A DNA stretch of 64,000 nucleotides from an uncultured delta proteobacterium. GTDB lineage: Bacteria; Desulfobacterota; Binatia; Binatales; Binataceae. Shown piece after piece: positions 19,999 to 62,232 of the stretch (positions are counted from its first letter, which is position 1; each line of letters starts with the position of its first letter). Under the pieces are notes generated by a model. The model was given only the letters and a program-made list of their open reading frames with translations, was not told the origin of the DNA and searched no databases. The DNA is taken from the NCBI GenBank assembly GCA_963756155.1, contig CAVWMQ010000001.1, positions 423,592-487,591 of the forward strand, in the 5' to 3' direction. Position numbers and translations under genes: made by a program.

Positions 19999-20022
19999 CA
20001 GATCGGTAACTCAGCCGCAATC

Positions 20023-21464: not shown

Positions 21465-22175
21465 CTAGCGCCGGTCTTCGACCTTCTCTACTTGCGGCGG
21501 CCCATGCGCGGAGGCGAACGACGCGAGTTGCGCGTCGCCGGCGATTTGGTGCGACAAGTCCTGCAGCGACGAGTCCAGCGGCGACTGAACCGCCTCGGTC
21601 AATTCGGCCAGGCCGTCCTGGTTGGCGATATATCCATGCACCGGAAGAAACGCATCGAGGCTCACGATGTCGACCGCCACCAGCGCCGCATGCTTCGGAC
21701 TCCACATCACCGGCTTCAGATGAATCTTCGCGACGCTGGTAACCTCGGACAAAATCTGGTTGGAGCGCGAATCTTCGAACGTGATCGTCACCCGGATATA
21801 CCCATCGAGGACCCCGTATGCGGGCGTGGTCGTGATGTCTTCCATCGCGACCAAGTCGCCGTCGCGCGCGGCGCTTTCGAGGTCCGGCGAATTCGCGACT
21901 TTCTGGAAGTTATTTTTCAGCACACTCTTGATCGCACCGCTGAGCGCGGGTTGCAGCACCACCGTGCAACTGTCCTCGCTGGTGCCGCATCCATACCATT
22001 GCAGGCCCGACGGCGGCGCCTCGAGCAGCGTTACGCTCGTCGCAATCGGCCGCGGCGAATCCGGCTGCTGGTGATAGAAGCTCGCGGGCATCGGGCCCGA
22101 GGTGTGAAAGCATCCTGCCGAGCCCAAGGGCAACAAGCCCAGGCCGGCCAGGATCGCGGTGCGAACGCGCGACAC
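21465..22175 (-). CDS. Putative lipoprotein (hypothetical)
   Basis: Signal peptide with lipobox (LGLLPLGSAGC). No recognisable domain. Confidence 0.5.
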   Translation of the reverse strand: MSRVRTAILAGLGLLPLGSAGCFHTSGPMPASFYHQQPDSPRPIATSVTLLEAPPSGLQWYGCGTSEDSCTVVLQPALSGAIKSVLKNNFQKVANSPDLESAARDGDLVAMEDITTTPAYGVLDGYIRVTITFEDSRSNQILSEVTSVAKIHLKPVMWSPKHAALVAVDIVSLDAFLPVHGYIANQDGLAELTEAVQSPLDSSLQDLSHQIAGDAQLASFASAHGPPQVEKVEDRR

Positions 22176-24480: not shown

Positions 24481-26037
24481 ATGCTGGCGCTTCGCCGAAG
24501 GAATCTTTTGGCCAACGATTACATCGAGGCGGCGCGCGCCTACCACGAAATAACCAAGCACTCGTATACGAGCGTCCGCAGCGCCGGTCACGCGCTCGAC
24601 TGGGACTCGAAGCCGCTCGCGTACAAAATTTATCCGGAGGCGGCGTCGCTCCTGCTGCCGCGCGACTTGAGCCTTTCCGCGATGCCCGCGCTGAGCGCGA
24701 TCGCGACCGACGCGCCCGCGGACTCGGCGGCGCCGCTCGGACTCGAGCAGCTCACGCGCATCCTGTTTTGCGCCGACGGTCTGACGCGCCGCAAGCGCGT
24801 CGGCAACGAGGACTATCACTTCCGCGCCGCGCCGTCCGCGGGCGCGCTCTATCCAATCGAGATTTATCTCGCCGCGGGCGAAGTCGACGGGCTGGAGGCG
24901 GGCCTTTACCACTTTTCGCCCGCCGATCTTAAGCTGCGCGGTCTGCGCCGCGGTGACGTGCGCGCGATACTCGCGCAAGCATCCGCGAATCGACCTTCGA
25001 TCGTTCACGCACGCGCGGCGCTGGTTCTCACCTCGATTTTCTGGCGCAGCGCATGGAAGTATCGCGCGCGCGCGTATCGATATTGTTTCTGGGATGCGGG
25101 CACGATGCTCGCGAACCTGTTCGCGGCCGCATCCGCCGACGCGGTTTCAGCCGAGGCGGTGACCGCGTTCACCGACGCTCCCGTAGAAGCGCTGCTTGGA
25201 ATCGACAGCGACCGCGAGGGAGTCGTCGCGATCGTCCCGCTCGGGAGCGGCGCGCGCGAGCCGGCGCCGCCGCCCGAAATCACGCCAATTCCGTTCGAGT
25301 CGATCGAGCTGTCACAGCGCGAAGTCGTCTACGACGACATCGTAAAGATGCATCGCGAGTCGCGGCTGGTCACCGAGGCGGAGGTCCGCGCCGTGTCCGA
25401 CGCGATGCTGCCACCATCGGCACCGTCATCCGCCACGCCGGCCCGCGCGTTGAAGTTCGACAGCGTCGCTCCCGCAGATGCGATGGGCCTGGGCGAGACG
25501 ATCCTGCGTCGCGGCTCGACCCGGACATTTGCGCGCGAAGCGATTTCCGCCGAGGAGCTCGCGGCGATCCTGGCGGCGTCCAGCGCGCATCCACGCGTGG
25601 ATTTCCCGCGTCTCACCGACACGTATCTGATCGTCAACGCAGTCGATGGGATGGAGCCGGGCGCATACTACTACGCGCCCGCCACCCGCGCCGCCGCGCC
25701 CGCCTTCGAGCTTGTCAACCTGGGCAACCTCCGCGCCCAGGCTGGCTACCTGTCCCTGGAGCAGCCGCTCGGGATGGATTGCTCTGTCCTGTTGGTTTAC
25801 ATGGCCGACCTGGAACGCGCGCTAGGCGCGCTCGGTAATCGCGGCTATGGCGACGCGCACCTCGAGGCGGGGATTCTCGCCGGGCGAGCGTATCTTTCCG
25901 CCTATGCGCTCGATCGCGGTGCGACCGGTCTCACTTTCTACGACGACGATACAACCCGCTTCTTCGAACCGCACGCGGCGGGCAAGAGTCCGCTGCTGAT
26001 GGTCGCGCTCGGCGTTCCTCTTGCCCGCTCTGCCTAG
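24481..26037 (+). CDS. SagB-type dehydrogenase domain protein (nitroreductase superfamily, tandem double-domain, 518 aa)
   Basis: N-terminal YHEITKHSY motif characteristic of SagB/ThcOx-type dehydrogenase domains. Two nitroreductase-like halves (…ADGLTRRKRVG…YHFRAAPSAGALYPIEIY… and …RGSTRTFAREAIS…). Confidence 0.6.
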   Translation: MLALRRRNLLANDYIEAARAYHEITKHSYTSVRSAGHALDWDSKPLAYKIYPEAASLLLPRDLSLSAMPALSAIATDAPADSAAPLGLEQLTRILFCADGLTRRKRVGNEDYHFRAAPSAGALYPIEIYLAAGEVDGLEAGLYHFSPADLKLRGLRRGDVRAILAQASANRPSIVHARAALVLTSIFWRSAWKYRARAYRYCFWDAGTMLANLFAAASADAVSAEAVTAFTDAPVEALLGIDSDREGVVAIVPLGSGAREPAPPPEITPIPFESIELSQREVVYDDIVKMHRESRLVTEAEVRAVSDAMLPPSAPSSATPARALKFDSVAPADAMGLGETILRRGSTRTFAREAISAEELAAILAASSAHPRVDFPRLTDTYLIVNAVDGMEPGAYYYAPATRAAAPAFELVNLGNLRAQAGYLSLEQPLGMDCSVLLVYMADLERALGALGNRGYGDAHLEAGILAGRAYLSAYALDRGATGLTFYDDDTTRFFEPHAAGKSPLLMVALGVPLARSA

Positions 26038-26304
26038 TGGCAAGCGTCCGCCTCCAATCTTGTGACTGAATATTGTGCGGATGCCCGCGCAGTGGGCATC
26101 GATCGTCGCGTCCCGAGCGACATTGCAGAATACAATTGCAGAATTCACGATGGCATTCTTCTTGCGCGATGCGGATGGTTCCCATGCTTACGATGGAAAG
26201 ACTCTAGGCCTTGAGACTGAGAAGAAATCAGCCTCGCGATCGAGGAGATCTTCTGACCGCGAAGACGTCCCGCTTCCAGAGAGCGGATACCGCAAGGAGG
26301 AGAA

Positions 26305-27966
26305 ATGGCCGAACCAGCTGAAAAACCCAAAATGGTGCCCACGCTGGGACTGACGGGTGTCACCGTCAACGCGATGGCGCTGATCGCGCCTGGAGCCTTT
26401 CTGTGGATCACATTCGTCGTTCAAGCGGGCTACGCTTATCCGTCCGGGATAACCATGTGGGCCGGTATTTTTGCCGCTCTCATGCTCGCGTACGCCACCG
26501 CTATCTCGTACTCGGAACTCGCTAAGCTCTATCCAGGAGCAGGCAGTTCCTATTTCTTTGCGGAACAGGCATTTCTCAGCAAGACGCACGCTTTCAAGTT
26601 TGCCCGCATCGCCAAATTCACGATGGGATGGGCGTCGCACCTGTATTACTGGGTCTACCCCGGCGCCATGGTTGCCACGATCGGGATCATGATCGGATAC
26701 ATCGTCGGCAACTTTTTTCCTAACAGCATGAACGCCGGAACGCCGGGCCCCGTGTTCATGGCGCTGGTCGCAGTCATCTCTTCTTTCGCAGTTGCATACA
26801 TCGCGTTTCGTGGTGTGAACGGCTCGACGATGGTCAACATCGTCATCAATGCGATCCAAATCACCGCGCTGCTGTTCTTCTCCGCACTAGCGATCGCGTA
26901 CCGGGTCGGTCATCCGGAAGGGTCGCACGGCCTGGCCCTCGATGGCACCACCAAGGTCTTGCACTACGCGTTGAGTGGCGACACGCCGGCACATCCAAGT
27001 GCGTTTTCGGTCATTGCACCGCACAACTTCAGCTATGTCATGCTGCAAGCCACGATCGCGATTTTCTTGCTGGTCGGCTTCGAGTCGATCACCTCGCTCG
27101 GCGAGGAAGCGAAGGACCCCAAGCGCGATATCCCGCGCGGGGTGCTGCTCTCGCTGACGATCCAGGGTCTGTTCTGCTACATGATCGAATACTTCGCCGC
27201 CAACTATTTCATGTCGAGCGCCTACAGCCTGGCCGACGCAAAAGGCTCAGCGGCGCCGATCGGCGACATGATGACGATCATCGGTAACACCCTGCTCGGC
27301 GGGCATGGCCAGGCGTTCATGATGATCGAGGCGCTGACCGTGTTCCTGGCCCTGATAGGCACCACCCTTAGCTGTATCAACACGGGTGCGCGCGTCACCT
27401 ACGCGATGGGACGCGACGAGGAAGTACCAGAGCATTTCGGCATGCTGCATGGCGAAAACCTGACGCCTCATCGTACGATCTGGACGCTTGCGGTTATTTC
27501 CGCGGTGCTGGGCGCGTACGCGGCGCTTTATTTCTTCGCCGGCAGTTCCGCGCCGGACGACAAGACGATCGCAACGCTGCCACATAACATATGGTACGCG
27601 GTCGGAATGAGCTCCAATGCGTCTCTTACGGCTTTGCCTAACGGACTGGCGCTGGTCACCCTGATTTCAAACTTTGGAACATTCGTGGTCTATGGGTTAA
27701 CCAATCTCTGTTGCATAGTTGCGTACCGCGAGCACCATCAATTCCACGGCCTGAAACACATGGTGATACCGGTGTTCGGCGCGGTTGCGAACTTTGCCTG
27801 CATGGCCTTCTACGTCATCGGCCCGATTGAGGGACTCGGCAGCGTAAAAGAGCCTCTGATGGCGGTCGCCATAGCCATCATCTGGGGCGTCTACGGAGCT
27901 TTCTACTTCGTCCGCAACTCGAGGAAGAAGGGCAAGGAGACGGTGTTGATTAGCAAGCCTGCCTGA
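26305..27966 (+). CDS. APC-superfamily amino-acid/amine permease
   Basis: 12-TM APC architecture. RBS GCAAGGAGGAG upstream. Intrinsic terminator downstream. Confidence 0.8.
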   Translation: MAEPAEKPKMVPTLGLTGVTVNAMALIAPGAFLWITFVVQAGYAYPSGITMWAGIFAALMLAYATAISYSELAKLYPGAGSSYFFAEQAFLSKTHAFKFARIAKFTMGWASHLYYWVYPGAMVATIGIMIGYIVGNFFPNSMNAGTPGPVFMALVAVISSFAVAYIAFRGVNGSTMVNIVINAIQITALLFFSALAIAYRVGHPEGSHGLALDGTTKVLHYALSGDTPAHPSAFSVIAPHNFSYVMLQATIAIFLLVGFESITSLGEEAKDPKRDIPRGVLLSLTIQGLFCYMIEYFAANYFMSSAYSLADAKGSAAPIGDMMTIIGNTLLGGHGQAFMMIEALTVFLALIGTTLSCINTGARVTYAMGRDEEVPEHFGMLHGENLTPHRTIWTLAVISAVLGAYAALYFFAGSSAPDDKTIATLPHNIWYAVGMSSNASLTALPNGLALVTLISNFGTFVVYGLTNLCCIVAYREHHQFHGLKHMVIPVFGAVANFACMAFYVIGPIEGLGSVKEPLMAVAIAIIWGVYGAFYFVRNSRKKGKETVLISKPA

Positions 27967-27989
27967 CGGGGCTGCTTTCTCCCGAAACC

Positions 27990-28026
27990 GGGGCGGGCCG
28001 CGGGCAACTGCGGCTCGCCCCTTTTT
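27990..28026 (+). terminator. Rho-independent terminator after the permease gene
   Basis: 12-bp stem GGGGCGGGCCGC/GCGGCTCGCCCC (one G-U pair), loop GGGCAACT, followed by TTTTT. Confidence 0.65.
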
Positions 28027-44814: not shown

Positions 44815-45417
44815 CTAGCGGCGCAGATCGAGCGCGTCGAGCTTTTTGACTACCCAGTCGATTCGATCTTCGCCCCAGAATGGCTCGCCGTCCACGACGA
44901 AGGTCGGGACGCCGAAGATCCGGTCGCGATCGGCTTCGACGAAACATGCGTCGAGGTCGGCGGGCGCGCCGCTGTCGACGTAGCGCTCGAAGTCCGCGCG
45001 GTCTAGTCCGACTTCCGCGACCACGGCTCCGATCGCGTCGCGAACGTCGACTTCGAGCTCGCGCTTCCAGAATCGTTCGAACACCCGCGCGGAGTACTCG
45101 CGAAACTGGCCCTGCTGGTCCGCGTAGAGGCCGCCATAAAAGGCGAGCCGCGCGCTGTAAATCTTTTTCGGCGGATGAATCACGACCCCGCGCTCTTTCG
45201 CGATGCGCCGCGCGTCGACATACAGGTAGCGGACCTTGCGCTGATCCGCCTCCGCGCGATCGACGTCGCCGTAAACCTTGCGGATATTGATTCCGTACGG
45301 GATGAACCTGACGCGCACGCGATGGGACTGTTCGAGCGCACACGTCGGCGCGAAAGCCAGGTACGAGTACGGGCTGGTGTACGCGAAGTAGAGCTTGATT
45401 TCGAATGGCGCGGTCAT
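44815..45417 (-). CDS. DsbA-like thioredoxin-fold protein (2-hydroxychromene-2-carboxylate isomerase / GST-kappa family)
   Basis: MTAPFEIKLYFAYTSPYSYLAF…GVPTFVVDGEPFWGEDRIDW pattern. ATG overlaps the glcF stop (ATGA). The listed 552-aa ORF is a read-through artefact. Confidence 0.65.
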   Translation of the reverse strand: MTAPFEIKLYFAYTSPYSYLAFAPTCALEQSHRVRVRFIPYGINIRKVYGDVDRAEADQRKVRYLYVDARRIAKERGVVIHPPKKIYSARLAFYGGLYADQQGQFREYSARVFERFWKRELEVDVRDAIGAVVAEVGLDRADFERYVDSGAPADLDACFVEADRDRIFGVPTFVVDGEPFWGEDRIDWVVKKLDALDLRR

Positions 45418-46697
45418 TGGCGTGATGCGAGCGCGAGGAAATCGGCGAGATGGATCACGCGGGTCTTGGCTCCGGCGCGGCGCAGCTCGGCCGCGATTTG
45501 AAATTCGCATCCGGGATTTGCGAGCACGACGTAGTCGGCGCCGGTCGCGCGAATGTTGTCGGCCTTGCGCTTGGCGAGCTCGCGCGACATCGCGGGCTCG
45601 GTCAGGTTGTAGCTGCCCGCCGAGCCGCAGCAAACGTCGGACTCCGCCATCTCGACGATTTTCACGCCCGGAATCGAGGCGAGCAGCTTGCGCGGCGCCT
45701 CGCGGACGCCGAGGCCGTGCACGAGGTGACACGCGTCGTGGTAAGTGACGGTGCAGTGGAATTCTCTGGCGGCGGTCGGGGGCCGCGCGAGGAGCATCGA
45801 GCTGAGATCTTTGACGCGCGCGGAAATCGCGCGCGCGTCTGCGGCCAGCTCGGAATCGTTTTTGAGCAACTCGCCGTATTCCGCGATTGCAACCGAGCAT
45901 CCGGAGGCCGCCGACAGGATCGCGTCGGCGCCACACGCCTTGAGCGCGCGGACGTTGGCGCGCGCGAATTCCAGCGCGCGGTTTCGATTGCCCGCGTGCA
46001 GGTCGAGCGCCCCGCAGCAGACGGTGCTGCCGAGATGCAGCACGCGGTAGCCGGACGCGGCCAGCGCGCGCTCCATGTTCAGGTTTTCCTCGTCGGCCAG
46101 CACCTGCGCGACGCATCCGTGATGCACCACGACGGTGGGCGCGCCGGCGGCGGGCTGCGCGCGCGGCGTTTCGATTTGCGCGTTGGCTCCGGCGGTGAGC
46201 GGCGGCAGCAGCTCGAGCCAGCCGCGCAACGCCGGCGGCATAATTCGCGTGACAAAGGGGCGCAGGCCAGCGCGCTCGAGTAGCCGGATCGGAGCAAGCA
46301 GCGCGCGCATCCGGTTCGGATAGGGAAAGATCGAGCTGACGGCGAAGCGGCGCAGGCGATCGCCGAGCGCGCGGCGATGCTCGCGCTCGACAAACGCGCG
46401 AGCGTCCTCGATCAGCCGTCCGTAGTGAACGCCGGAGGGACACGCGGTCTCGCATCCGCGGCATCCGAGGCACAAGTCGAGATGGCGCACGGCATCCTGA
46501 TCGAGATCAAGTCTTCCCTCGGCGAGCGCCTTCATCAGGTAGATCCGTCCGCGCGGCGAATCCATCTCGGCTCGCGTCAGCATGTAAGTCGGGCACGCCT
46601 CGAGGCACAGGCCGCAATGCACGCAGTCGAACAGGAGATTGTAGTCGACGACGTTGCGAACCGGCTGGGCGGGAGCGGCGGGTGCTTCGGGCGGCAT
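45414..46697 (-). CDS. glcF: Glycolate oxidase iron-sulfur subunit GlcF
   Basis: Two 4Fe-4S motifs (CVHCGLCLEACP, CLGCRGCETACP) followed by two CCG cysteine-rich domains. ATG at 46697 overlaps the glcE stop (TGATG) and is preceded by GGAGG. Confidence 0.8.
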   Translation of the reverse strand: MPPEAPAAPAQPVRNVVDYNLLFDCVHCGLCLEACPTYMLTRAEMDSPRGRIYLMKALAEGRLDLDQDAVRHLDLCLGCRGCETACPSGVHYGRLIEDARAFVEREHRRALGDRLRRFAVSSIFPYPNRMRALLAPIRLLERAGLRPFVTRIMPPALRGWLELLPPLTAGANAQIETPRAQPAAGAPTVVVHHGCVAQVLADEENLNMERALAASGYRVLHLGSTVCCGALDLHAGNRNRALEFARANVRALKACGADAILSAASGCSVAIAEYGELLKNDSELAADARAISARVKDLSSMLLARPPTAAREFHCTVTYHDACHLVHGLGVREAPRKLLASIPGVKIVEMAESDVCCGSAGSYNLTEPAMSRELAKRKADNIRATGADYVVLANPGCEFQIAAELRRAGAKTRVIHLADFLALASRQ

Positions 46698-47959
46698 CAG
46701 ATTCCTCCGACGAAGCATCCGGGGTTGAAGATGTTAGCCGGGTCGAACGCGGCCTTCATGCGCCGCATCAGCTTGAGCGCTCCGTCGCCCGGCTGATCGA
46801 AGAACTCGATCGAATCGCGCAGCTCCGGCGCGGCGGCGAGAACCCGCACGTGACCGCGCGCGGCATGAGCGACCGCGCGCCATCGCGCGAGCATTTCGCG
46901 TGCTTCATCGTGGGCTAGCTGGGGTGCGAAAATCTCCGCTACGCCCGAACCGGCGTGGGCGGCGAATTCGACGCCGCAGGCTTCCAGAGCAGCTCCCAGC
47001 TCCGCCGGCAGAACGGCGATGCGGGCGGCGAGCGCGGCTTCGGGGAGATCCAAGTCGCGAAGCCGCACATAGGCGGCTTCGCCCGCATCGGAAGGGAGGA
47101 AGTCGACTTCGGTCGCTGCAATCGTGGTGAGCTTTTCGATCTGATAGTCGAGCTCGCGGCGGTTTCCGTAGAAGCCCGCGATCAGCAGGAATTTTCCGGA
47201 GCGCTGGAACTCGCCCGCGAGCGCAGGACTCAGCACTTCGAGATGGGCGAGCGGGAGCTCGTCGTGGAGCGCGCGCGCGGCGGCAAACGCGTCGCCGATG
47301 CGATCGTAGGGCGCGATCGCGACGGAGTAATGCTCCAGGAGCGGGCGCACTTTGAAAGTCGTCTCGACGATAATCCCGAGCGTCCCGAACGAGCCGCCCA
47401 TCACCTTCATCAGATCGTAGCCGGCGACGTTTTTGACCACGCGGCCGCCGCCGTGCACCAGCTTTCCGCCGTGGCCGGCGAAGCGGATTCCGATCAAAAG
47501 ATCGCGCGCGCTACCGTCGGAGTGACGCATCGGTCCCGCGTGCGCGGCGGCCACCAGAGCGCCGAGAGTGGTCGCCTCGGGATCGCGCGGATCGGCGGTA
47601 AGCCGCTGCCCCGAATGCGACAGCACGCGGTTCAATTCCGCGACGGTCAGACCCGCCTCCGCGACCACCGTCATATCGTCGGGCTCGTAGGCGACGACGC
47701 GCCCGAGGCGCGCGAGCGAGACGCCGACCGCAACAGGAGTGCGGCGAATCTGCGCGAGAGTGCGAGCCGCGCCGATCGGCGCGAGTGCGATGCGGTCGGC
47801 TTCGCACGCGCGCACGATCTCGGCGGCTTCTTCGACGCTGGCGGGCTCGACGATCGCATTCGCGACGCGGGCTTCGAGTCCCCGCGGCGCTCGCACGCGA
47901 TCGGCGCCCAGCAACTCCGCAACGCGGTCCGCGTGATTCGATTCGACGGCTTGGGTCAC
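46697..47959 (-). CDS. glcE: Glycolate oxidase FAD-binding subunit GlcE
   Basis: FAD-binding PCMH-type domain (…VAYEPDDMTVVAEAGLTVAELN…KNVAGYDLMKVMGGSFGTLGII…). Likely GTG start at 47959, 24 nt after the glcD stop. The listed 926-aa ORF is a read-through of out-of-frame glcD sequence. Confidence 0.7.
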   Translation of the reverse strand: MTQAVESNHADRVAELLGADRVRAPRGLEARVANAIVEPASVEEAAEIVRACEADRIALAPIGAARTLAQIRRTPVAVGVSLARLGRVVAYEPDDMTVVAEAGLTVAELNRVLSHSGQRLTADPRDPEATTLGALVAAAHAGPMRHSDGSARDLLIGIRFAGHGGKLVHGGGRVVKNVAGYDLMKVMGGSFGTLGIIVETTFKVRPLLEHYSVAIAPYDRIGDAFAAARALHDELPLAHLEVLSPALAGEFQRSGKFLLIAGFYGNRRELDYQIEKLTTIAATEVDFLPSDAGEAAYVRLRDLDLPEAALAARIAVLPAELGAALEACGVEFAAHAGSGVAEIFAPQLAHDEAREMLARWRAVAHAARGHVRVLAAAPELRDSIEFFDQPGDGALKLMRRMKAAFDPANIFNPGCFVGGI

Positions 47960-47982
47960 GATGCGAACTGCCGGGGCCGCTC

Positions 47983-49440
47983 TCAGAGCGGGACCTGGCG
48001 GCGCGGCGCGGCGACCTCGACGCACGCGCCGGGAGTTGGAATGACCTTGTTGGGGTTGGAACGATTCATCGGATCGAACACGCGGCGCAGCTCGGCCATC
48101 GCGATGAGATCGCCGGGGGAGAACAACAGCGGCATCTCGGCAATCTTCTCGACGCCGATTCCGTGCTCGCCGGTGAGGCTGCCGCCCATCTCGACGCAGG
48201 CCTTCAGGATTTCGCGGCCGGCTTCGATCGCGCGGCGCACCTGGCCGGGCTCGCGCTCGTCGTAAAGAATTATCGGATGGATGTTGCCGTCGCCGGCGTG
48301 AAAGACGTTGCCGATCCTGAGATCGTAGCGGCGGCTCACGTCGCTGATCACGCGCATGATTTGCGGCAGACGGGTGCGCGGCACCACGCCGTCCTGGGTC
48401 GCGTAATTGGGTGCGAGGCGGCCGACGGCTCCGAAAGCGCGTTTGCGCGCCTTCCAGAGCGCGGCGCGTTCGGCTTCGTCGCGCGCGAGTTTCACTTCGG
48501 TCGCGCCGTCGTTGCGCAAGAGTTCCATTACCGCGGCGGCGCGATCGGAAAGCCCGGCCGCGAGACCGTCGAGCTCGACCAGCAGCACCGCGCCGGCGTC
48601 GGGCGGAAGGCCCACGTGAAAGGCGGCTTCGACGGCGCGAATGATGAGCTGGTCCATCATCTCGATCGCGCCGGGGACGATTCCCGCGGCGATGATCGCG
48701 GACACGGCGCGCGTCGCGGAGTCGACGTCGGGGAAGATCGCGAGAATAGTGGCGCGGCTCTCGGGCTCGCGCAGCAGCTTGAGCGTCGCACGCGTGACGA
48801 TTCCGGTGGTGCCTTCGGAGCCGACGACGGCGCCGGCCAGATCGTAACCGCATCGCTCTTCGCAGGCGCCGCCGAGCTCGACGACTTCGCCGTCGGGGAG
48901 CACCAACTCCACGCCCAGCACGTGATTGGTGGTGACGCCGTATTTCAAGGTGTGCGGGCCGCCGGAGTTTTCCGCGATGTTGCCGCCGATGGTGCAGGCC
49001 TGCTGCGAAGACGGATCGGGCGCGTAGAAGCAGCCACGATCGCGGACCGCGTTGGTCACGTGGAGATTGACGACGCCGCTTTCGACTTCGACGCGGCGGC
49101 TGGCGACGTCGATCGAGACGATGCGGTTCATCCGCGAGGTGCAGATCATCACGGGCGCATCGAGCGGGAGCGAACCGCCGGAGAGGCCGGTGCCCGCGCC
49201 GCGCGGAACGAACGCGACGCCGCGACGATGGAGCGCGCGCAGGATCGCGCTGGTCTCGGCGGTCGTGCGCGGCATCAGCAGAACGTCGGGCGCGCTCTTC
49301 TCGATCGTCCAGCCGTCGCACTCGTAGACCTTGAGCTCGCTCGCGCGCGAGACGATGCCGTCTGCACCGACGATTTCGGAGAGCTCGGCGACGAGGGATC
49401 GATCGATGGGGCTCGTTTGCGCGCCGTCGTTCACGTCCAA
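47983..49440 (-). CDS. glcD: Glycolate oxidase subunit GlcD (FAD-linked oxidase)
   Basis: FAD-binding domain RGAGTGLSGG and C-terminal FAD-linked oxidase domain (…GNVFHAGDGNIHP…GEHGIG…). Confidence 0.85.
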   Translation of the reverse strand: MDVNDGAQTSPIDRSLVAELSEIVGADGIVSRASELKVYECDGWTIEKSAPDVLLMPRTTAETSAILRALHRRGVAFVPRGAGTGLSGGSLPLDAPVMICTSRMNRIVSIDVASRRVEVESGVVNLHVTNAVRDRGCFYAPDPSSQQACTIGGNIAENSGGPHTLKYGVTTNHVLGVELVLPDGEVVELGGACEERCGYDLAGAVVGSEGTTGIVTRATLKLLREPESRATILAIFPDVDSATRAVSAIIAAGIVPGAIEMMDQLIIRAVEAAFHVGLPPDAGAVLLVELDGLAAGLSDRAAAVMELLRNDGATEVKLARDEAERAALWKARKRAFGAVGRLAPNYATQDGVVPRTRLPQIMRVISDVSRRYDLRIGNVFHAGDGNIHPIILYDEREPGQVRRAIEAGREILKACVEMGGSLTGEHGIGVEKIAEMPLLFSPGDLIAMAELRRVFDPMNRSNPNKVIPTPGACVEVAAPRRQVPL

Positions 49441-49573
49441 ACCTTAGCACAGGCGCCCGTGTTAGCGGTTTTGCCAATCTTCAGTTGCGGGTCATAATAG
49501 CGGGGCTCGAAATCAGCCCGGAGTTTCTTGAGTCGCGATTCGAGTCGCGGCGCGCAGGACAAGGGGAACAAAC

Positions 49574-51426: not shown

Positions 51427-53970
51427 CTATTCTTCGCTGTCTCCGGTCGTCGCGCCGTTGGAACCGTTGCCGTTGCCGCCGTCGTCCTCTTCTTTCTCCG
51501 CGAGGCCGGCTACCGCGCGGACTTTCTCGTTCGGTTCGAGCCTCACCAGATGCACGCCCTGCGCGTTGCGGCCGGTGAGGCGCACGTCCTTCACTCCGAG
51601 ACGGATCACCTTGCCGCCGTCGGTTATCAGCATCACCTGATCGTCGGAGCCGACCTGGCGAACGCTGACGACCTTGCCGGTTTTCTCGGTGACGTTCATC
51701 GTGATCACGCCCTTACCGCCGCGATGCGTCAGCCGATAGTCGGAGGCCGGCGTGCGTTTGCCGTAGCCGAGCTCGGAAACCGTGAGCAGCGTTTCGTCCT
51801 CGCGCGAGGTCGACATCGAAACGATTTCGTCCTCGACCAGGGTCACGGTCTTGCCTTCCTTGACCGGGTACGATTCCAGCTCCATGCCGAGCACGCCCTG
51901 GGTGTCGCGGCCCATCGGGCGCACTTCCTCTTCCTTGAACCTGATGGCCTGGCCCTCACGAGTCGACAGCACGATTTGCTGATTGCCGTCGGTGACGCGC
52001 ACGTCGACCAGGGAGTCGCCGTCATCGAGGCTCATCGCGATGATCCCGCTGGAGCGGACGTTCGCGAACGCGTCGATCTCGGTCTTCTTCACGCGGCCGC
52101 GGCGGGTGGCGAAGAACACGAACTTGCCCTTGAGATCGCGCGGCACCGGGATGAAGGCGGAGAGCTTCTCGTCGTCGGCAAGGCTGAGCAGGTTTGCGAT
52201 CGAGCGGCCCTTTGCGGCGCGGCCCGCCTCGGGAAGCTCGTAGGCCTTGAGCTGGTAGACCTTGCCCCGAGAGGTGAAGAACAGCAGGCGGTCATGCGTC
52301 GAGACGCGCTCGAGATGCTCGACGAAATCCTCTTCCGTGGTGGTCGCCCCGATCTTGCCGCGGCCCCCGCGCCGCTGCGTGCGGTAGAGCGAGAGCGGAG
52401 TACGCTTGAGGTAGCCGCCGTGCGTGATGGTGACCAGCACGTCCTCTTCGACGATCAGATCTTCGACCGAGAACTCGCCCTCCGCTTCGATGATCTGGGT
52501 GCGGCGCGGATCGGCGAATTCCTTCTTGATGTCCTCGAGCTCGGCCGAGATCAGTTTCATCAGCTCGCGCTCGTCGGCGAGGATCGTCCTCAGCCGCTTG
52601 ATGGTGTCGGTGACCTGCTTGTGCTCGGTTTCGATCTTGTCGCGCTCCAGCGAGGTCAGCCGGCGCAGCGTCAGGTCGAGGATCGCCTGCGCCTGCGGCT
52701 GCGACAGTTTAAAGCGCGACATCAGGCCCGAGCGCGCCGCCTCGGCATCCTTGGAGGCGCGAATCAGCTTGATGACCGCGTCGAGGTTCTGCAGCGCTAT
52801 CAGCAGTCCGTCCAGGATGTGCAGGCGCGCCTCGGCCTCGCGCAGTTCGAAGCGCGTGCGGCGTGTTAGCACCACTTTGCGATGCTCCAGGAAGGCGACC
52901 AGCATCTGCAGGAGATTCATCTCCTTGGGCCGCCCCTCGTGGATTCCAAGCAGGATGATGCCATAGCCGAGTTGCATCTGGGTGAGCTTGTAGAGCTGGT
53001 TGAGCACCACGCGCGGTTCGGCGTCGCGCTTGAGCTCGATCACGATCCGCATTCCGTCGCGGTCCGACTCGTCGCGCAAGTCGCTGATGCCTTCGATCCG
53101 CTTTTCGTTGACCAGCTCGGCCATCCGCTCGATCAAGCGCGCCTTGTTCACCTGGTAGGGGATCTCGCGCACGATGATCGACGCGCGTTGCGAGCGCTTG
53201 TCGGTCTCGATCGCCGCCAGCGCGCGCATCGTGAGCGTTCCGCGCCCGGTCAGATATGCCTGCCGGATGGTGGCGCGGCCGAGCAGCTGTCCGCCGGTCG
53301 GGAAGTCGGGGCCGGGAATAATGTCGAGGACTTTCTCGAGGCTCAAGTCCGGGTCCTCGACCAGCGCGAGCAGCGCGTCGCAGACCTCGCCGAGATTGTG
53401 CGGCGGAATGTTGGTCGCCATCCCGACCGCGATACCGTCGGAGCCGTTGATGAGCAGGTTGGGCACCTGCGCCGGCAGAACTTCGGGCTCGTCCTGCGAG
53501 CCGTCGTAGTTAGGAATGAAATTGACGGTGTCCTTTTCGATGTCGGCGAGCAGGCGCGCGGCCAGCGGCGTGAGCCGGCACTCCGTGTAGCGCATTGCAG
53601 CGGGCGGGTCGCCGTCGACCGATCCAAAATTTCCCTGCCCGTCGATCAGCGGGTAGCGCAGGGTGAAGGTCTGCGCCATGCGCGCGAGCGCGTCGTAAAC
53701 CGCGGTGTCGCCGTGCGGATGGTACTTGCCGAGGACGTCGCCGACTATCGACGCGCACTTGACGTGGCGATGGTTGGGGAGCAGGCCGGCGCGGAACATC
53801 GCGTAGAGAATCCGCCGGTGCACCGGCTTGAGGCCGTCTGCGATGACCGGCAGCGCGCGTCCGATATTCACCGACATCGCGTAGTCCAGGTAGGACTGCC
53901 GCATGTCGTCTTCGATATTCAGCAGCGCGGGCTCGTGACGGGTCGGTTCGTTGCCGTTGGTCTCAGCCAT
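51427..53970 (-). CDS. gyrA: DNA gyrase subunit A
   Basis: [12 protein letters not shown]…[14 protein letters not shown], active-site Tyr region, and C-terminal beta-pinwheel repeats. 847 aa. Convergent with the GST, stops separated by 6 nt. Confidence 0.95.
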
Positions 53971-54026: not shown

Positions 54027-56546
<2,520 letters not shown>

Positions 56547-56575
56547 TTAATCAAACGGTATTTCTATTCATCACC

Positions 56576-56584
56576 TGTGGATAA
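56576..56584. promoter_or_regulatory. Perfect consensus DnaA box (TTATCCACA, read on the minus strand) in the AT-rich gyrB upstream region
   Basis: tgtggataa lies on the plus strand. The surrounding 340 nt (56445-56786) are about 45% GC. Confidence 0.4.
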
Positions 56585-56786
56585 TAAACGGTCCGAAATC
56601 AGGGAACTATTTGCAAGCACAAGCGCTATACTCTAAGGCCGCGAACAAGCAAGTGAATGTTGTCATAATAAAACCCAATTCTGGCAATCGTCAGGGCCTG
56701 TTTGAGTGTTCGGAAACGCTCGCGTTTTGGTATCGCCGGACGAAAGAAAAGTAAGCTGCTCGCCTCGCCTCCGCGCGCACTCGGCG

Positions 56787-57179
56787 TCATAAGAGTTGGA
56801 ATCCATTACGACGCGCTGCCTTCTGGTCGAACGTCACCGTATACTCGCAGCCCATTCTGCGGTTGATAGCTGCGATCAAACTGTCCGAGAAGTCGGCACC
56901 CTCTCGATACTCGCGGAGTGCGATGAGTGCTTCATCGCGATCCTCGATCGCCAATTGCTGAACCAGAAGCAAATTGTCCAGAACCCGGAAAACCACCTCC
57001 CTCGAATAGGCGTAGCCGCGTTCGAGCACCCAGACCGTCTCGCACAGCACGATACGATTAATGAACCCGGGATCTTCCGGACTACACTCACGGTCGATAA
57101 AAGACTTGGCACTACGCGCCTGGGCGGGATCGTCTCGTAGCAGATAGCGGAGCAGGACGTTGGTGTCGAGCGCTTTCAA
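56787..57179 (-). CDS. vapC: PIN-domain toxin VapC
   Basis: MKALDTNVLLRYLL…D…E…D pattern of PIN nucleases. 4-nt overlap with the upstream antitoxin. Confidence 0.85.
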   Translation of the reverse strand: MKALDTNVLLRYLLRDDPAQARSAKSFIDRECSPEDPGFINRIVLCETVWVLERGYAYSREVVFRVLDNLLLVQQLAIEDRDEALIALREYREGADFSDSLIAAINRRMGCEYTVTFDQKAARRNGFQLL

Positions 57180-57424
57180 CGCCGCGAGCGTTCCACCGCC
57201 CGCGTCGCGATTGCGTCGTTCATATCATCAATCGACAGCCGACGTGGGGCTGGAGCAAGGAATCCGTATAGGTCCTTGATGTGGACGGTCATGGGAACCA
57301 CCACTACGGTTCCGTCTCGTTCGATCACGAAGTCGACCCGGTTTCCCGGCTTGAGCTTCAGGTGATCGCGGATCTTTTTAGGCATCGTGAGCTGCCCCTT
57401 GCTGGTTATGGTTGCAGTCGGCAT
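57176..57424 (-). CDS. vapB: AbrB/SpoVT/MazE-family antitoxin VapB
   Basis: ITSKGQLTMPKKIRDHLKLKPGNRVDF swapped-hairpin beta-barrel motif. 82 aa. Confidence 0.8.
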   Translation of the reverse strand: MPTATITSKGQLTMPKKIRDHLKLKPGNRVDFVIERDGTVVVVPMTVHIKDLYGFLAPAPRRLSIDDMNDAIATRAVERSRR

Positions 57425-57446
57425 ATGGTTCCTTACTCTGACAAGA

Positions 57447-57468
57447 TATCCTTACTTACGTGTAAGGA
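57447..57468. promoter_or_regulatory. Perfect 8-bp inverted repeat ATCCTTAC-N6-GTAAGGAT, 23-44 nt upstream of vapB; candidate antitoxin operator
   Basis: Read directly from the sequence. One of four perfect palindromes in 57425-57634 (see findings). Confidence 0.5.
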
Positions 57469-57634
57469 TTTTAGCAGTCCCAGCCTCGAATACCAAGTAC
57501 TTGGCTCACTCGGTAGAAAGCACAGAACCAGGCATGCGAAACCCACCCCGGTTTCGCGCTTCCCTTTCGTCAAGACTGGAAACCTCGATGAGGTTTCCAT
57601 GCGGAGCGTGGCCGCGTGACGGAGTTCGCCGCTT

Positions 57635-58372
57635 CTATCTGGCGATAGCGGAGCCGGCTTCGCCGCCTGGAGTTGGCAGCGCATTGCAGGCGCGCTGGAT
57701 TCCGTCGAAGAACTGCCACCACAGGTCGAGCGAACGCTCCGCAGCGCCCCAGACCCGCGCGCGCTCCACTTCGCCCAGCGGGGTGCGGCTCAGGATATGG
57801 TCGCCGACGTCGCTATGATCGCGATCGGCGATCTCATGCACGTCGAAGAATGCGACCTGCTCGCGGCTGAGGCCGTAATGCTTTTCCAGCGCGCGTGCGA
57901 AACCGGCGAAGTTGCCCGGGACCTGGCCCTCGGCGGCGATATTGATCGCGGCTACACCTTCGGCGAACGAGCGGTCCTTGGTCGACAGCTCGAACCAATC
58001 GATCAGCGATGCGGTAGACGCCAGCGGCTTGCCCTCGATCAGATCGGAGCGGCCCAGGCCGACGCCCAATCCGATCCGCATGAAGAGCTCCGGATGCGGC
58101 GCGCTGCCGGAGATTTTTCCGGTCTCCTCTTCGTAGAGGCTCTCGGCGAGCTTGACGCGCTCCTCCGCGCTGGTGCATCGCGAATGCAGCGCGCTGAGCG
58201 CGCGCGGGAACTCGCGCACCTGGAGGAAGAACTGGGTCGCGAAGATGCTGAGGCCAGCCTGCGAGACTTTGCCATCCTGGATCTCGAGCCACAGCGGATG
58301 CCGTCCGAAGGAGCGCCGCTCCTTCACCATCGCGAACAGCTCGCGCACAAAACCGTCACTCACATGGGCCAT
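57635..58372 (-). CDS. PqqC/TenA/CADD-like heme-oxygenase-fold di-metal enzyme family protein
   Basis: HPLWLEIQDGKVSQAGLSIFATQFFLQVREFP… resembles PqqC/CADD helices. Candidate metal ligands are E…E (LYEEE), H (HPELF) and an HEIADRDH motif with the H-x3-D-x2-H spacing I recall from CADD. Confidence 0.55.
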   Translation of the reverse strand: MAHVSDGFVRELFAMVKERRSFGRHPLWLEIQDGKVSQAGLSIFATQFFLQVREFPRALSALHSRCTSAEERVKLAESLYEEETGKISGSAPHPELFMRIGLGVGLGRSDLIEGKPLASTASLIDWFELSTKDRSFAEGVAAINIAAEGQVPGNFAGFARALEKHYGLSREQVAFFDVHEIADRDHSDVGDHILSRTPLGEVERARVWGAAERSLDLWWQFFDGIQRACNALPTPGGEAGSAIAR

Positions 58373-58593
58373 AGTCGGGAACCTCGTGGGTCAGTCGCGC
58401 ACGTACTCGAAACGTACAAAACCTGCGGAGCAAAGTGAAGGGTAAGGCACGACGAAGCGGATCGGCTGAGCGCGAAGCGCGCATCTTGGCCTACCGGGAA
58501 GCGCGAAACCCGTGAGGGTTTAGCATACCGCTCTGCTTCTTTTGCCGACAGGATCGGAGCTATGACGTTTCGGTGTCCGCGCCGGTCCGTGCG

Positions 58594-58974
58594 TCACGCG
58601 GCGGGGCGGGTGGTTAGTTCGCCGCCGCAGTTCGGACATATGTGCTGGTAGCCCGAGGCGCACGCGGGGCAAAAGGTACATTGGAATGAACAGGACTCCG
58701 CGCTGCTGTCGCGGGCGACCGGCGTATGGCACTTCTCGCATTCGTTCTTGAAGGTACTCATCTGCAGCAGCAACTTGCCGTTGGCGTCCTCGCGATCCGC
58801 CGCCGCCAGGAGCTGCTCGCGCGCCTTCTCGTTGCGCTCCGACGCGGCCCACGCGCGATACATCGCGCCGCCGCCGTACTCCAGGCGCCCGAGCAGCGCC
58901 ATCGATTCGAGCCTCGGTTTGCCTTCGAACAGCGCTGCGATCATTTGCTCGGGCGCGACGGTTTCGTTTTTCAT
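58594..58974 (-). CDS. Hypothetical protein with a C-terminal 8-Cys zinc-ribbon-like module
   Basis: CEKCH…CSFQCTFCPACASGYQHICPNCGG. N-terminal half unassigned. Confidence 0.4.
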   Translation of the reverse strand: MKNETVAPEQMIAALFEGKPRLESMALLGRLEYGGGAMYRAWAASERNEKAREQLLAAADREDANGKLLLQMSTFKNECEKCHTPVARDSSAESCSFQCTFCPACASGYQHICPNCGGELTTRPAA

Positions 58975-59146
58975 CTCGAGTACCCTCCCGGACTGGTTCA
59001 GCCTCGCGTTAATTGAATTGAATTGAGATATGATGCGGCGGCTCAGATCGTTCGACTCCCGCGTTCGCGGTACGACCGCGCTTCTTTTGCCGGCGACAGC
59101 GGAGCCGGCTTCCTGCGTGGCCCTCCGGTGCAGGGGCCGGCCCCTG

Positions 59147-60976
59147 CTAATCCACGCGATGCAGGTCGGCGAGCAGTTCCTTGGCGTCGATATAGCCGAC
59201 TTTGCGCTCGAATACCCGCCCGCGTGAGTCGATCAGCATCGTGGTCGGCACGCCCTGGATTTCATACTTGCTGATGAGCGCCTCGTTGGCCGTGTCCTGC
59301 GCGGTCAGGTTGGCGCGCAGCCTCACGAAACGCGCGGCCTCTTTGACCACCGACGGATCGACGAAGGTCGAATGCTCCATCTCGCGGCATGGGATACACC
59401 AGTCGGCGCTGAAATCGACCAGCACCGGCTTGCCTTTGGACGCCGCCGAGTCGAGCAGCGCGGGATTGAAGGCTTCGAACTCGAGCATTCGCGGAGCGCT
59501 GCCGCGCGCAATCGTCATATAGATGAGCGCCAGAACCGCGGCCACGCCGACTGCCGACCGGAAAACCAGGAACGGGCGCCAGTTGCGGCCCACCGGCGTG
59601 AAGAAGCCCAGGTAAATCGCGGCCAGGGCGCCGTAGTACGGCAGTATCCGCGTCATCAGATGGTTGGGCAGGACCGGGTCGAGAAAATAGATCGCAAGCC
59701 CGATCAGGACGAAGCCGAACAGGCGCTCGACCCACGCCAGCCACTCGCCCGAGCGCGGCAGGTTTTTTATCGAGCCCGCTGCCATCGCCAGCCCGATGTA
59801 TGGAAGTCCCAGCCCTATCGCGAGCGTGAAGAACAGCGCGAAGCCGAACACCGGGCTCCGGCTCCGCTCGACCATCAGCAACAGTCCGAGCACGATCGGC
59901 CCGATACACGGCGCCGCCACCACGCCCATGCCGAGTCCCATCAGCATCGAGCCCGCGTAGCCGGGGCGCGCGGCACCCGCCCATCGCATCATGAATTGCG
60001 GCGGCTGCAGCGTGAACACGCCGAAGCAGGAGGCCGCGAGCAGCAGCATCGTCGCGGCGATCGCGGTCAGCACGTACGGGTTCTGCAGCGCCGCGCCGAA
60101 AATTCCGCCCGACAGCGCGACCGCGACTCCGACCGCCGAGAACATCAGCGCGATTCCCATCACGTAGCAGACCGCGAGGACCAGCACGTTGCGCGGTCCG
60201 CCGCCCTGCCTGCCGAAGTACGCGATCGTGACCCCGATCAGCGGGTACACGCACGGAGTCAGATTCAGCGCGAGGCCGCCCAGCAGCACGACCAGGAAGC
60301 CGAGAATATTCCCATGCTTGTCGAACACGCGGGCGAGTGCCTCGCCGGCGTCATCGCCCGCGTGCTCGGCGTCCGATGCGATCGCGCTCGCGACGGCGCC
60401 ACCGCGACCGTCGGAGGCGGCAAGCGTTCCGAGGTCGACCGTCGAGCTGACCGACGCCGGCTTCAGGCACAGGTTGTCGTTACAGGGCTGGTAGTCGATG
60501 GTGACGGTGAGGTTATGGCCGGGACCGGCGCTGAAATCGGAGGCGACCGCGAGCGGCACTTCGAATGCGATCGAGCCGCCGAAGACGGAGAGCTTTCCGC
60601 CGCCGGAAAAATCGAGCTTCAGCTCTTTGGCTTCGGGATACTTGACCGCGCCGGCGGTGATTCCGTTCGGCGCGCTCACCCGCAGATCGGTCGCGATATA
60701 GTCGTCGCTCAGCGGATGGTTCGAATTGATATGCCATCCCGCGAGGACGAGCGCGTCGACCTTGAGCGCGCTGCTCGCGCCGGGCTGGAGCGGACGCTCG
60801 AGGGTGACCGACTTGATGAAGACGACCTGGCCGGGCGACGCCGCCCACGCCCGCGGTGCGCCTGCCGCGGCGATCGCCAGAATCACCGTGACGATCGCGA
60901 TCATGATCGTCAGTCGATTCAATATTCGCAGCGCCGGCGCTCGGCTCGTCGAACTCGAAATCGAATCAGGAATCAT
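59147..60976 (-). CDS. dsbD: Thiol:disulfide interchange protein DsbD (full three-domain form)
   Basis: N-terminal DsbD-alpha domain (…YQPCNDNLCLKP…), central 8-TM domain with the TPCVYPLI Cys pair, and a C-terminal thioredoxin domain (DWCIPC). Confidence 0.85.
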   Translation of the reverse strand: MIPDSISSSTSRAPALRILNRLTIMIAIVTVILAIAAAGAPRAWAASPGQVVFIKSVTLERPLQPGASSALKVDALVLAGWHINSNHPLSDDYIATDLRVSAPNGITAGAVKYPEAKELKLDFSGGGKLSVFGGSIAFEVPLAVASDFSAGPGHNLTVTIDYQPCNDNLCLKPASVSSTVDLGTLAASDGRGGAVASAIASDAEHAGDDAGEALARVFDKHGNILGFLVVLLGGLALNLTPCVYPLIGVTIAYFGRQGGGPRNVLVLAVCYVMGIALMFSAVGVAVALSGGIFGAALQNPYVLTAIAATMLLLAASCFGVFTLQPPQFMMRWAGAARPGYAGSMLMGLGMGVVAAPCIGPIVLGLLLMVERSRSPVFGFALFFTLAIGLGLPYIGLAMAAGSIKNLPRSGEWLAWVERLFGFVLIGLAIYFLDPVLPNHLMTRILPYYGALAAIYLGFFTPVGRNWRPFLVFRSAVGVAAVLALIYMTIARGSAPRMLEFEAFNPALLDSAASKGKPVLVDFSADWCIPCREMEHSTFVDPSVVKEAARFVRLRANLTAQDTANEALISKYEIQGVPTTMLIDSRGRVFERKVGYIDAKELLADLHRVD

Positions 60977-61047
60977 CGGTAGCTAGAACAATAGCAGTGC
61001 ACACGCGGTTCCGCTCGTCCTGGCGCGGCGCTAACGATTCACATCGG

Positions 61048-62232
61048 CTAGCTGGCGGCGGAGGCCGAAGAGTTGCCGTTGCTGGCCGAAAGCGGGACTG
61101 AGCCGACGATCTCGAGGCCATAGCCGGGCAGGTTGGCCAGCCGCGGCGTCGCGTCGGACATGATGATCATCTTGCGCACGCCCATGTCGCGCAAAATCTG
61201 CGCGCCAATTCCGTAGTCGCGGAAGTCGGCTTCCGAACCGCTCATCCGGGTGGTGGCGCGGCGCACGTGGTGTCCTGAAGGGGCGTCGAGCTCGGAGGCG
61301 ATCGCGTTGGATTCGCGTTTCAGATAGAGCAGCAGGCCTTCGCCGGCCGCGGCGATTTTTTCCATCGCGGAGCGCAGCAGGCTGCGCGTGTTGCGGTCGG
61401 AGTAGCCGAATACGTCGCCGGGCAGGTACTCGCGATGCGCTCGAACCAGGATCGGCTTGGATGAATCGACCTTGCCCATCACCAGCACCAGGTGCTCGGT
61501 GTAATCGACCAGGTTGCGATAGACGACCGCCCTGAAGTCGCCGTAGCGGGTGGGCAGGAGCGCTTCGGCGATCCGCACCACCATCGTCTCGTTGCGCAGC
61601 CGGTATTCGATAAGGTCGGCGACGGTGACGATCTTGAGGCCGTGCGCGCGCGCGAATTCGACCAGGTCGTCGCGCCGCGCCATGGTGCCGTCTTCCTTCA
61701 GGATCTCGCAGATGACGCCCGCGGGCTTGAGCCCCGCCATCCGCGACAAGTCCACTGCGCCCTCGGTCTGGCCGGTGCGCACCAGCACGCCGCCGTCGCG
61801 CGCGCGCAGCGGATAGACGTAGCCTGGGGTGATGAATTCGGAGCCGCTGGCGTCTTCGCGCACCGCCTGCTGAATGGTTATCGAGCGATCGTGCGCGGAG
61901 ATTCCAGAGCCCGCCGCGCGTCGCGCCGTGATCGCGGTGGTGAACGCGGTGCCCAGCGGAGCCTGGTTGTCGCCGACCATCATGCTGAGGCCCAGCCGGT
62001 CGATGCGATCGCCTGACATCGGCAGGCAGATGAGGCCTCGCCCGTGCCGGGCCATGAAGTTGACCGCCTCGGGGGTGACTTTTTCGGCGGCCATGCAGAG
62101 GTCGCCCTCGTTCTCGCGCTGCTCGTCATCCATCAGGATGAGCATGTGGCCGCGGCGAGTTTCCTCGAGCGCTTCTTCCACCGAGATGAAGGGCGCCTTG
62201 GCTCTCGCGCGAGGGGAGATTTCACCGAACAT
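61048..62232 (-). CDS. ribBA: Bifunctional 3,4-dihydroxy-2-butanone-4-phosphate synthase / GTP cyclohydrolase II
   Basis: DHBP synthase N-terminal half (…RENEGDLCMAAEKVTPEAVNFMARHGRGLICLPM…) plus GTP cyclohydrolase II C-terminal half (…CDCGEQL-type Zn Cys region, IMSDATPRLANLPGYGLEIV). Confidence 0.9.
   Translation of the reverse strand: MFGEISPRARAKAPFISVEEALEETRRGHMLILMDDEQRENEGDLCMAAEKVTPEAVNFMARHGRGLICLPMSGDRIDRLGLSMMVGDNQAPLGTAFTTAITARRAAGSGISAHDRSITIQQAVREDASGSEFITPGYVYPLRARDGGVLVRTGQTEGAVDLSRMAGLKPAGVICEILKEDGTMARRDDLVEFARAHGLKIVTVADLIEYRLRNETMVVRIAEALLPTRYGDFRAVVYRNLVDYTEHLVLVMGKVDSSKPILVRAHREYLPGDVFGYSDRNTRSLLRSAMEKIAAAGEGLLLYLKRESNAIASELDAPSGHHVRRATTRMSGSEADFRDYGIGAQILRDMGVRKMIIMSDATPRLANLPGYGLEIVGSVPLSASNGNSSASAAS

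Follow-up and report, generated by a model that had tools for sequence, protein, structure and literature searches.

A predicted heme-oxygenase-like di-metal oxidase of an uncharacterised CADD-like subfamily in the ribBA-dsbD-gyrB array of Binataceae

The DNA analysed here, called the window, is a stretch of 64,000 nucleotides from an uncultured member of the Binataceae (assembly GCA_963756155.1, contig CAVWMQ010000001.1, positions 423,592 to 487,591). It carries a gene for a 245-aa protein that is a member of a known superfamily, the heme-oxygenase-like di-metal oxidases (HDOs), in a subfamily without a characterised representative. An earlier note, made from the sequence alone, had drawn attention to this gene and to an open reading frame (ORF) for a 126-aa protein upstream of it; both ORFs were found on the minus strand where that note had placed them, and the HEIADRDH motif that it had singled out occupies residues 179-186 of the larger protein. 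Both ORFs have coding-type codon bias, with a G + C content of 0.82-0.83 at third codon positions (GC3) against 0.47-0.52 at second positions (GC2). The closest match to the 245-aa protein is 99% identical (E 2e-158) and that to the 126-aa protein 96% identical. Given this codon-position G + C content and the hundreds of homologues, we regard both ORFs as real genes. The exact 245-aa sequence was not on record in an exact-sequence look-up. The gene, its motif and the other putative ligand codons are as follows.

57635..58372, minus strand: HDO gene, 245 aa, predicted member of an uncharacterised, CADD-like 'WFF...F' subfamily (profiles, AF2, Foldseek)
57815..57838, minus strand: HEIADRDH motif, HDO residues 179-186, with putative ligands H179, D183 and H186 (direct sequence reading)
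58127-58129, minus strand: E82 codon, putative HDO metal ligand (alignment to CADD)
58094-58096, minus strand: H93 codon, putative HDO metal ligand (alignment to CADD)
57929-57931, minus strand: E148 codon, putative HDO metal ligand (alignment to CADD)

Against Pfam, the 245-aa protein matched PF14518 ('iron-containing redox enzyme') with 92 bits and an E-value of 4.7e-26, and PF03070 in part, with 42 bits over residues 22-143. Its sole NCBIfam match was TIGR04305 (CADD family), at 126.3 bits and under the 200-bit cutoff. The top sequence matches in the PDB were the 4-aminobenzoate synthase 9pj4, which is NePabS-like, and then CtCADD (1rcw, 8va9). The protein and its homologues form a clade of which 117 members were compared; a profile built from 67 of them and run against PDB sequences found the p-aminobenzoate (pABA) synthases at E-values of 1e-29 and 2e-23, PqqC and FlcD at about 1e-8 and UndA at 1e-4. 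The H-x3-D-x2-H motif is short and could be due to chance, so the family assignment rests on the full-length profile matches.

The AlphaFold2 (AF2) model of the protein is an all-helical bundle (predicted local distance difference test, pLDDT, 88.5; predicted template modelling score, pTM, 0.86). In a Foldseek search the top matches were the CtCADD crystal structures, with a template modelling (TM) score of 0.80 for the query and 0.90 for the target and a root-mean-square deviation of 2.0-2.3 A, followed by PqqC, FlcD, TenA, UndA, BesC and HrmI. CADD residues E81, H88, E142, H174, D178 and H181 align to HDO residues E82, H93, E148, H179, D183 and H186, and these six ligands (three His and three carboxylates) are kept in 116-117 of the 117 clade members. 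On the profiles and the model, the 245-aa protein is a predicted HDO with the seven-helix heme-oxygenase fold and a complete six-ligand site. The CADD-like fold and site proposed in the earlier note are thus upheld by the profiles, by the ligand mapping and by a confident model that best matches CtCADD. The structural and profile checks which that note had suggested point the same way: the model superposes well on CtCADD, with the ligands mapped by alignment, and profiles place the CADD/pABA synthases far ahead of PqqC, with no TenA match in NCBIfam. Of the two outcomes that the note had named as contrary to its proposal, a TenA-type site has no indication from the NCBIfam models, and the protein is not a simple PqqC paralogue.

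The closest known systems are two self-sacrificing pABA synthases, the chlamydial CtCADD (CT610) and NePabS (NE1434), which share with the window HDO a length of about 230 aa, the seven-helix fold, the same 3His/3carboxylate set with the same spacing (E...H, E, H-x3-D-x2-H) and a common cysteine (Cys65/66), and which are its best matches in both sequence and structure. This cysteine, C66, is the sole invariant Cys of the clade and aligns to CADD C65. The two systems differ from the window HDO in that identity to them is about 25%, every sacrificial and relay residue described below is substituted, the TIGR04305 score is below cutoff and folate gene context is lacking. The window protein and its homologue at locus L007, the closest relative, also carry a C-terminal tail of about 15 residues (231-245, encoded at 57635-57679) that the usual 230-aa homologues do not have; the tail is predicted to be disordered, with pLDDT below 50 at residues 237-245.

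For pABA synthesis, CADD and NePabS cleave their own Tyr27 and Tyr25, respectively, and de-aminate their own Lys152 and Lys159 (PMC11965152, PMC13108848). They also require Tyr43 (Tyr41 in NePabS) and a redox relay of Tyr47 and Trp92, and CtCADD requires Tyr141 and Tyr170 as well (PMC11965152, PMC13108848). At the position of the sacrificial tyrosine the window protein has W28, and Trp is found there in all 117 clade members; at that of the sacrificial lysine it has F158, where the clade has Phe in 108 members, Met in four and Leu in four, and never Lys. Tyr43 is replaced by Phe (F44 in the window protein) in 114 of the 117 members and Trp92 by Phe (F97) in 116, while the changes of Tyr47 to Phe (F48), Tyr141 to Ala (A147) and Tyr170 to Phe (F175) are found throughout the clade. 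The link to self-sacrificing pABA synthesis that the earlier note had implied is therefore not supported, as every clade member lacks both sacrificial residues and all of the redox relay. Self-sacrifice of the tryptophan W28 in place of the tyrosine was considered as well and rejected as unlikely, because all intervening relay residues are Phe or Ala.

Residue signatures were also compared among representatives of 50%-identity clusters. The pABA-synthase signature YYYEHWEK, together with the ligands, was uniform in 36 cluster representatives; the query clade reads WFFEHFEF, and dozens of further small HDO subfamilies have other residue combinations. In a neighbour-joining tree the query clade was monophyletic and lay apart from the YYYEHWEK pABA-synthase group.

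The genes around the HDO gene, and the parts of the 126-aa ORF, are listed below.

58373..58593, minus strand: spacer between the 126-aa gene and the HDO gene, 221 nt, without a recognisable element
58594..58974, minus strand: gene for a 126-aa half-ferritin-like/Cys8 DUF1272 protein, lineage-specific insertion in the dsbD/HDO interval
58756-58914, minus strand: half-ferritin-like hairpin of the 126-aa protein, residues ~21-73
58627-58740, minus strand: Cys8 DUF1272 domain of the 126-aa protein, residues 79-116
59147..60976, minus strand: dsbD, thiol:disulfide interchange protein, 609 aa (Pfam DsbD_N, DsbD_TM, thioredoxin)
61048..62232, minus strand: ribBA, 3,4-dihydroxy-2-butanone 4-phosphate (DHBP) synthase / GTP cyclohydrolase II, heads the conserved array, homologues 75-94% identical
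56787..57424, minus strand: vapBC pair, vapB 57176-57424 and vapC 56787-57179, 4-nt overlap
54027..56477, minus strand: gyrB, conserved downstream neighbour of the HDO gene
51427-53970, minus strand: gyrA, after gyrB (Pfam gyrA domains)

Locus comparison was based on a scan of one genome per species, which gave 78 loci. By tblastn, the order ribBA-dsbD-HDO was found in 59 Binataceae loci, with gyrB next in 54 of these at a median HDO-gyrB gap of 264 nt; the ribBA orthologue in L001 matched Pfam PF00926 and PF00925. The HDO gene is a conserved single-copy element of a ribBA-dsbD-HDO-gyrB array. Of the 59 loci, 17 have dsbD no more than 30 nt from the HDO gene, 18 have a gap of 31-150 nt and 24 a wider one, so that in Binataceae the HDO gene is often near enough to dsbD for co-transcription. 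The earlier note was right that vapBC and dsbD are the neighbours in the window, as Pfam matches confirmed (vapC encodes a PIN domain, vapB a MazE/AbrB-type protein; Pfam PIN, MazE_antitoxin). Its remark that an obvious pathway context is lacking is upheld in this window, although the gene has a conserved position between ribBA-dsbD and gyrB.

The interval between dsbD and the HDO gene (58373-59146 in the window) is a hot spot of variable cargo in Binataceae. It holds the DUF1272 gene in the window and L007, a calcineurin-like phosphoesterase (metallophosphoesterase) gene in L042, L043 and L045, a PIN toxin gene in L029 and a gene for a secreted 295-aa protein without a Pfam match in L002. On the other side of the HDO gene, vapBC lies between it and gyrB in the window only and is absent from all 84 related loci; it coincides with a dip in G + C content (0.578 versus about 0.64). 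Downstream of the HDO gene in L007 there are genes for NHL-repeat/ice-binding-like and tetratricopeptide repeat (TPR) proteins, and gyrB does not lie within 6 kb. Further low-GC stretches of the window were seen at 20001-22000 (0.563) and 26001-28000 (0.578), the latter spanning an amino-acid permease gene (26305-27966). At 45414-49477 on the minus strand, a gene for a CCG/4Fe-4S protein of 434 aa adjoins a 926-aa ORF on the same strand, and the two could together form a unit of the glycolate-oxidase or heterodisulfide-reductase type.

The 126-aa protein matched Pfam DUF1272 (PF06906), a Cys-rich domain of about 57 aa, with 64.9 bits (gathering threshold 25.3) and an E-value of 7e-18. The Cys8 module reported for it in the earlier note is present: its eight cysteines, C79, C82, C95, C99, C102, C105, C113 and C116, are invariant in 23 homologues, and E32, Y39, E62 and N65 are also invariant in the family. 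The N-terminal 78 residues had no Pfam match even at an E-value of 10; this module is common to about 250 proteins, nearly all of which have DUF1272 too. In the AF2 model (pLDDT 93) a pair of long helices precedes the Cys8 domain, and the helical hairpin superposes on Myxococcus xanthus EncB at 0.9 A over 55 residues, with poor Foldseek E-values of 0.6-1 (about 0.7 for EncB); it also superposes on sulerythrin and rubrerythrin, again with poor E-values. The top PDB profile match was the ferritin-like di-iron protein TM1526, at a marginal E-value of 0.027. The ferroxidase residues of the encapsulated ferritin EncFtn are Glu32, Tyr39, Glu62 and His65 (PMC5012862). Like EncFtn and EncB, the 126-aa protein is predicted to have a two-helix hairpin, with E32, Y39 and E62 at the ferroxidase spacing of EncFtn, but an invariant Asn takes the place of His65, and no encapsulin or targeting peptide was seen for it. 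On the model, the protein appears to be more than a zinc ribbon, resembling an encapsulated-ferritin-like half-ferritin hairpin fused to a Cys8 domain. This architecture is reminiscent of a miniature rubrerythrin, in which a ferritin-type module likewise precedes a Cys-rich metal domain; the C-terminus differs in being a Cys8 DUF1272 domain and not a Cys4 rubredoxin. Half-ferritin/DUF1272 genes also occur in L007 (5548-5928), L085-L088 and L092-L095.

Among about 60 Binataceae loci, just two have the DUF1272 gene beside the HDO gene: the window and L007, whose HDO is 91% identical. DUF1272 homologues are common in Binataceae and are placed elsewhere, either alone or beside genes for a 4HBT thioesterase and a phosphoenolpyruvate (PEP) mutase, between which the DUF1272 gene lies in L085 and L088. 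In Candidatus Binatus (L092-L095, 6001-7258) the half-ferritin/DUF1272 gene is found 16 nt upstream of a MOSC-domain gene, and on the 3.24-Mb contig_37878 the HDO and DUF1272 genes are about 1.1 Mb apart. Because the homologues mostly lie elsewhere, the pairing is a lineage-specific insertion and not a conserved module; the 126-aa gene and vapBC are lineage-specific insertions flanking the HDO gene, not its functional partners. The earlier note's intergenic gap is borne out, with a measured length of 221 nt (58373-58593), but its suggestion of a co-transcribed Cys8 partner is not supported, as the two genes are paired in just one other of 59 syntenic loci (L007) and the homologues occur in unrelated contexts. 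A promoter/terminator scan of the minus strand of the spacer found no promoter-like or terminator-like site, and a riboswitch/leader search of 56400-61200 gave no Rfam match at E<=1. A conserved 5' element upstream of the HDO gene was rejected, since blastn detected no resemblance between the spacer and the sequences upstream in 59 loci. Co-transcription of the two genes in the window is conceivable, no terminator being predicted in the spacer, but it would be incidental.

Neighbour clustering was done with a GC3-GC2 filter, as raw ORFs were swamped by spurious high-GC ORFs. Orthologues of 58-66% identity, from other Binatia and from Myxococcota-labelled metagenome-assembled genomes, have surroundings unlike the Binataceae array. 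An acyl-CoA dehydrogenase gene is divergently transcribed in 12 of the 21 loci of these orthologues, and in three loci the HDO gene is followed, at a distance of 12-18 nt, by a DUF1330 gene; recurring genes nearby encode AMP-dependent ligases, P450s, enoyl-CoA hydratase, aldehyde dehydrogenase and amidohydrolase_2. Two further associations were found in single loci: in L090 (7001-8972) a P450 gene lies 26 nt downstream of the HDO gene, and in L091 (6093-9675) the HDO gene is part of an operon of alpha/beta-hydrolase, HDO and old yellow enzyme (OYE)-type (OYE/Pyr_redox) reductase genes with gaps of 2-3 nt. In L089, genes for luciferase-like monooxygenases and a CoA transferase are near the HDO gene. 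Folate, PQQ (pyrroloquinoline quinone) and thiamin genes were found in none of the orthologue contexts. Among the recurrent arrangements is a divergent acyl-CoA dehydrogenase gene together with HDO-DUF1330 (L062, L064, L071, L075, L080, about 4700-7300), and genes for AveC-like (PF17198) membrane proteins also recur near these orthologues.

That the window HDO is itself a CADD/PabS-type self-sacrificing pABA synthase is very improbable. Its nearest solved relatives are indeed CADD and NePabS-like proteins, its six ligands are identical to theirs and TIGR04305 is its sole NCBIfam match, but the sacrificial Tyr27 and Lys152, the essential Tyr43 and the relay residues Tyr47, Trp92, Tyr141 and Tyr170 are all swapped for unsuitable ones, the TIGR04305 score of 126 bits is below the 200-bit cutoff, the clade stands apart from the uniform YYYEHWEK group, and neither the annotated parts of the window nor the surroundings of any homologue (about 90 loci) showed folate or pab genes. 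Database names point to another identity, that of a metal-free PQQ synthase paralogous to PqqC or of a thiaminase of the TenA type: in JGI, clade members carry the name 'pyrroloquinoline-quinone synthase', while 'TenA family transcriptional regulator' is the name in one NCBI record. PqqC and TenA have the same helical fold and weak profile similarity and are members of the PF03070 superfamily, which the window HDO matches in part (42 bits), and PqqC structures are among its secondary fold matches; they differ in being metal-free, without the metal ligands, and the catalytic residues of PqqC are not kept in the window HDO. A profile alignment to 3hlx contradicts the PqqC identity, as five of the six ligand positions are occupied in PqqC by His, Gly, Ser, Asn and a gap, and its active-site residues H154, Y175 and R179 (Klebsiella pneumoniae numbering) are F, F and E/H in the clade. 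Moreover, no NCBIfam model of either family matches at E<=1, the PF03070 match spans residues 22-143 only, and pqq or thiamin genes occur in none of about 90 loci, nor beside the HDO gene in the window. An identity as PqqC or TenA is thus extremely improbable, and because the PqqC alignment and the NCBIfam results speak against it, the names 'pyrroloquinoline-quinone synthase' and 'TenA family' are misleading for this clade.

Two further proposals concern the role of the gene. In one, the HDO would form a two-gene module with the 126-aa half-ferritin/Cys8 protein, which would deliver iron or electrons to a labile HDO cofactor. In the window and in L007 the two genes lie side by side on one strand (gaps in L007, 36 and 72 nt), the 221-nt gap has no predicted terminator, both proteins resemble carboxylate-bridged metal proteins, and some HDOs are known to need a partner, such as MboA/MboB (PMC13108848). 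We consider such a module decidedly unlikely, as the pairing is limited to two of about 60 Binataceae loci, the slot is filled by unrelated cargo in other lineages (metallophosphoesterase, PIN toxin, secreted protein), the small-protein homologues adjoin 4HBT thioesterase, PEP mutase or MOSC genes, and the two genes are 1.1 Mb apart on contig_37878. The other proposal is that the HDO is neither a biosynthetic nor a catabolic enzyme but a protective factor that sequesters iron or scavenges reactive oxygen species, as in the case of DtpC, an HDO-domain protein from Acinetobacter (PMC13232832). Such a role would suit a gene that in Binataceae is conserved, single-copy and housekeeping-like, lacks a pathway context and adjoins the redox gene dsbD, often within 30 nt. 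However, DtpC is much larger and distantly related and its mechanism is itself not known, and beyond the Binataceae the orthologues are closely packed into operons with genes for catabolic enzymes; the protective role is therefore unlikely, if somewhat less so than the module.

The reading that we prefer is that the 245-aa gene encodes a cytoplasmic HDO on the CADD scaffold that acts on a free substrate, and that it is an element of the array whose neighbours are not its partners; we hold this to be probable. The site would bind two metal ions, Fe/Fe or Mn/Fe, and the reduced di-metal site would activate O2 and oxidise the substrate. A mechanism of the CADD/NePabS type would be impossible, with the sacrificial Tyr and Lys and the Tyr/Trp hole-hopping relay changed to Trp, Phe or Ala. 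Since these residues are replaced, the most likely target of the oxidant would be a free small molecule that binds next to the cluster, in a pocket predicted to have a Phe/Trp lining and to be larger owing to the change of Tyr141 to Ala. The substrate-oxidising HDOs UndA, BesC, FlcD/FlcE, HrmI/BelK, AetD, SznF and RohS belong to the same superfamily, share the fold and are all among the fold matches, and the window HDO is predicted to resemble them in using a di-metal site to activate O2 for reaction with a free small molecule. They are far more distant from it (profile E-values of 1e-8 to 1e-4, 13-21% identity) and work in defined natural-product or alkene pathways, whereas the window HDO has no biosynthetic cluster. 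The aromatic lining and the lipid/xenobiotic-oxidation genes around the orthologues of about 60% identity weakly suggest a free hydrophobic, possibly acyl-derived small molecule as the substrate, as with UndA-type HDOs.

Several points weigh against this reading. The neighbourhood signal for a hydrophobic substrate is weak: acyl-CoA dehydrogenase and P450 genes abound in the genomes concerned, the orthologue loci are related by descent and their contexts vary by lineage, and the Binataceae neighbours ribBA, dsbD and gyrB are uninformative on the substrate. The putative hydrophobic pocket is drawn from the alignment to CADD, and for the clade as a whole metal binding, O2 activation and substrate are all inferred.

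A bolder version, which we think rather unlikely, holds that the W28/F-lined clade consists of CADD-derived HDOs in which self-sacrifice was exchanged for turnover on a free hydrophobic substrate, in a reaction new to the superfamily and encoded by a core Binataceae gene, perhaps served in this lineage by the mini-rubrerythrin-like half-ferritin/Cys8 protein as iron or electron donor.

The HDO superfamily comprises more than 10,000 sequences, of which about a dozen members are characterised, and is known for unusual chemistry (PMC13108848, a 2026 review). Within it, the window HDO would otherwise be one further orphan without a pathway. Correcting the names matters for the organism, as 'pyrroloquinoline-quinone synthase' and 'TenA family regulator' would wrongly imply PQQ or thiamin metabolism in Binataceae. 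For the family, the clade is a well-populated subfamily that keeps the CADD scaffold and metal site and has lost all self-sacrificial elements, and it is thus a natural point of comparison for how a catalytic HDO becomes a suicide enzyme.

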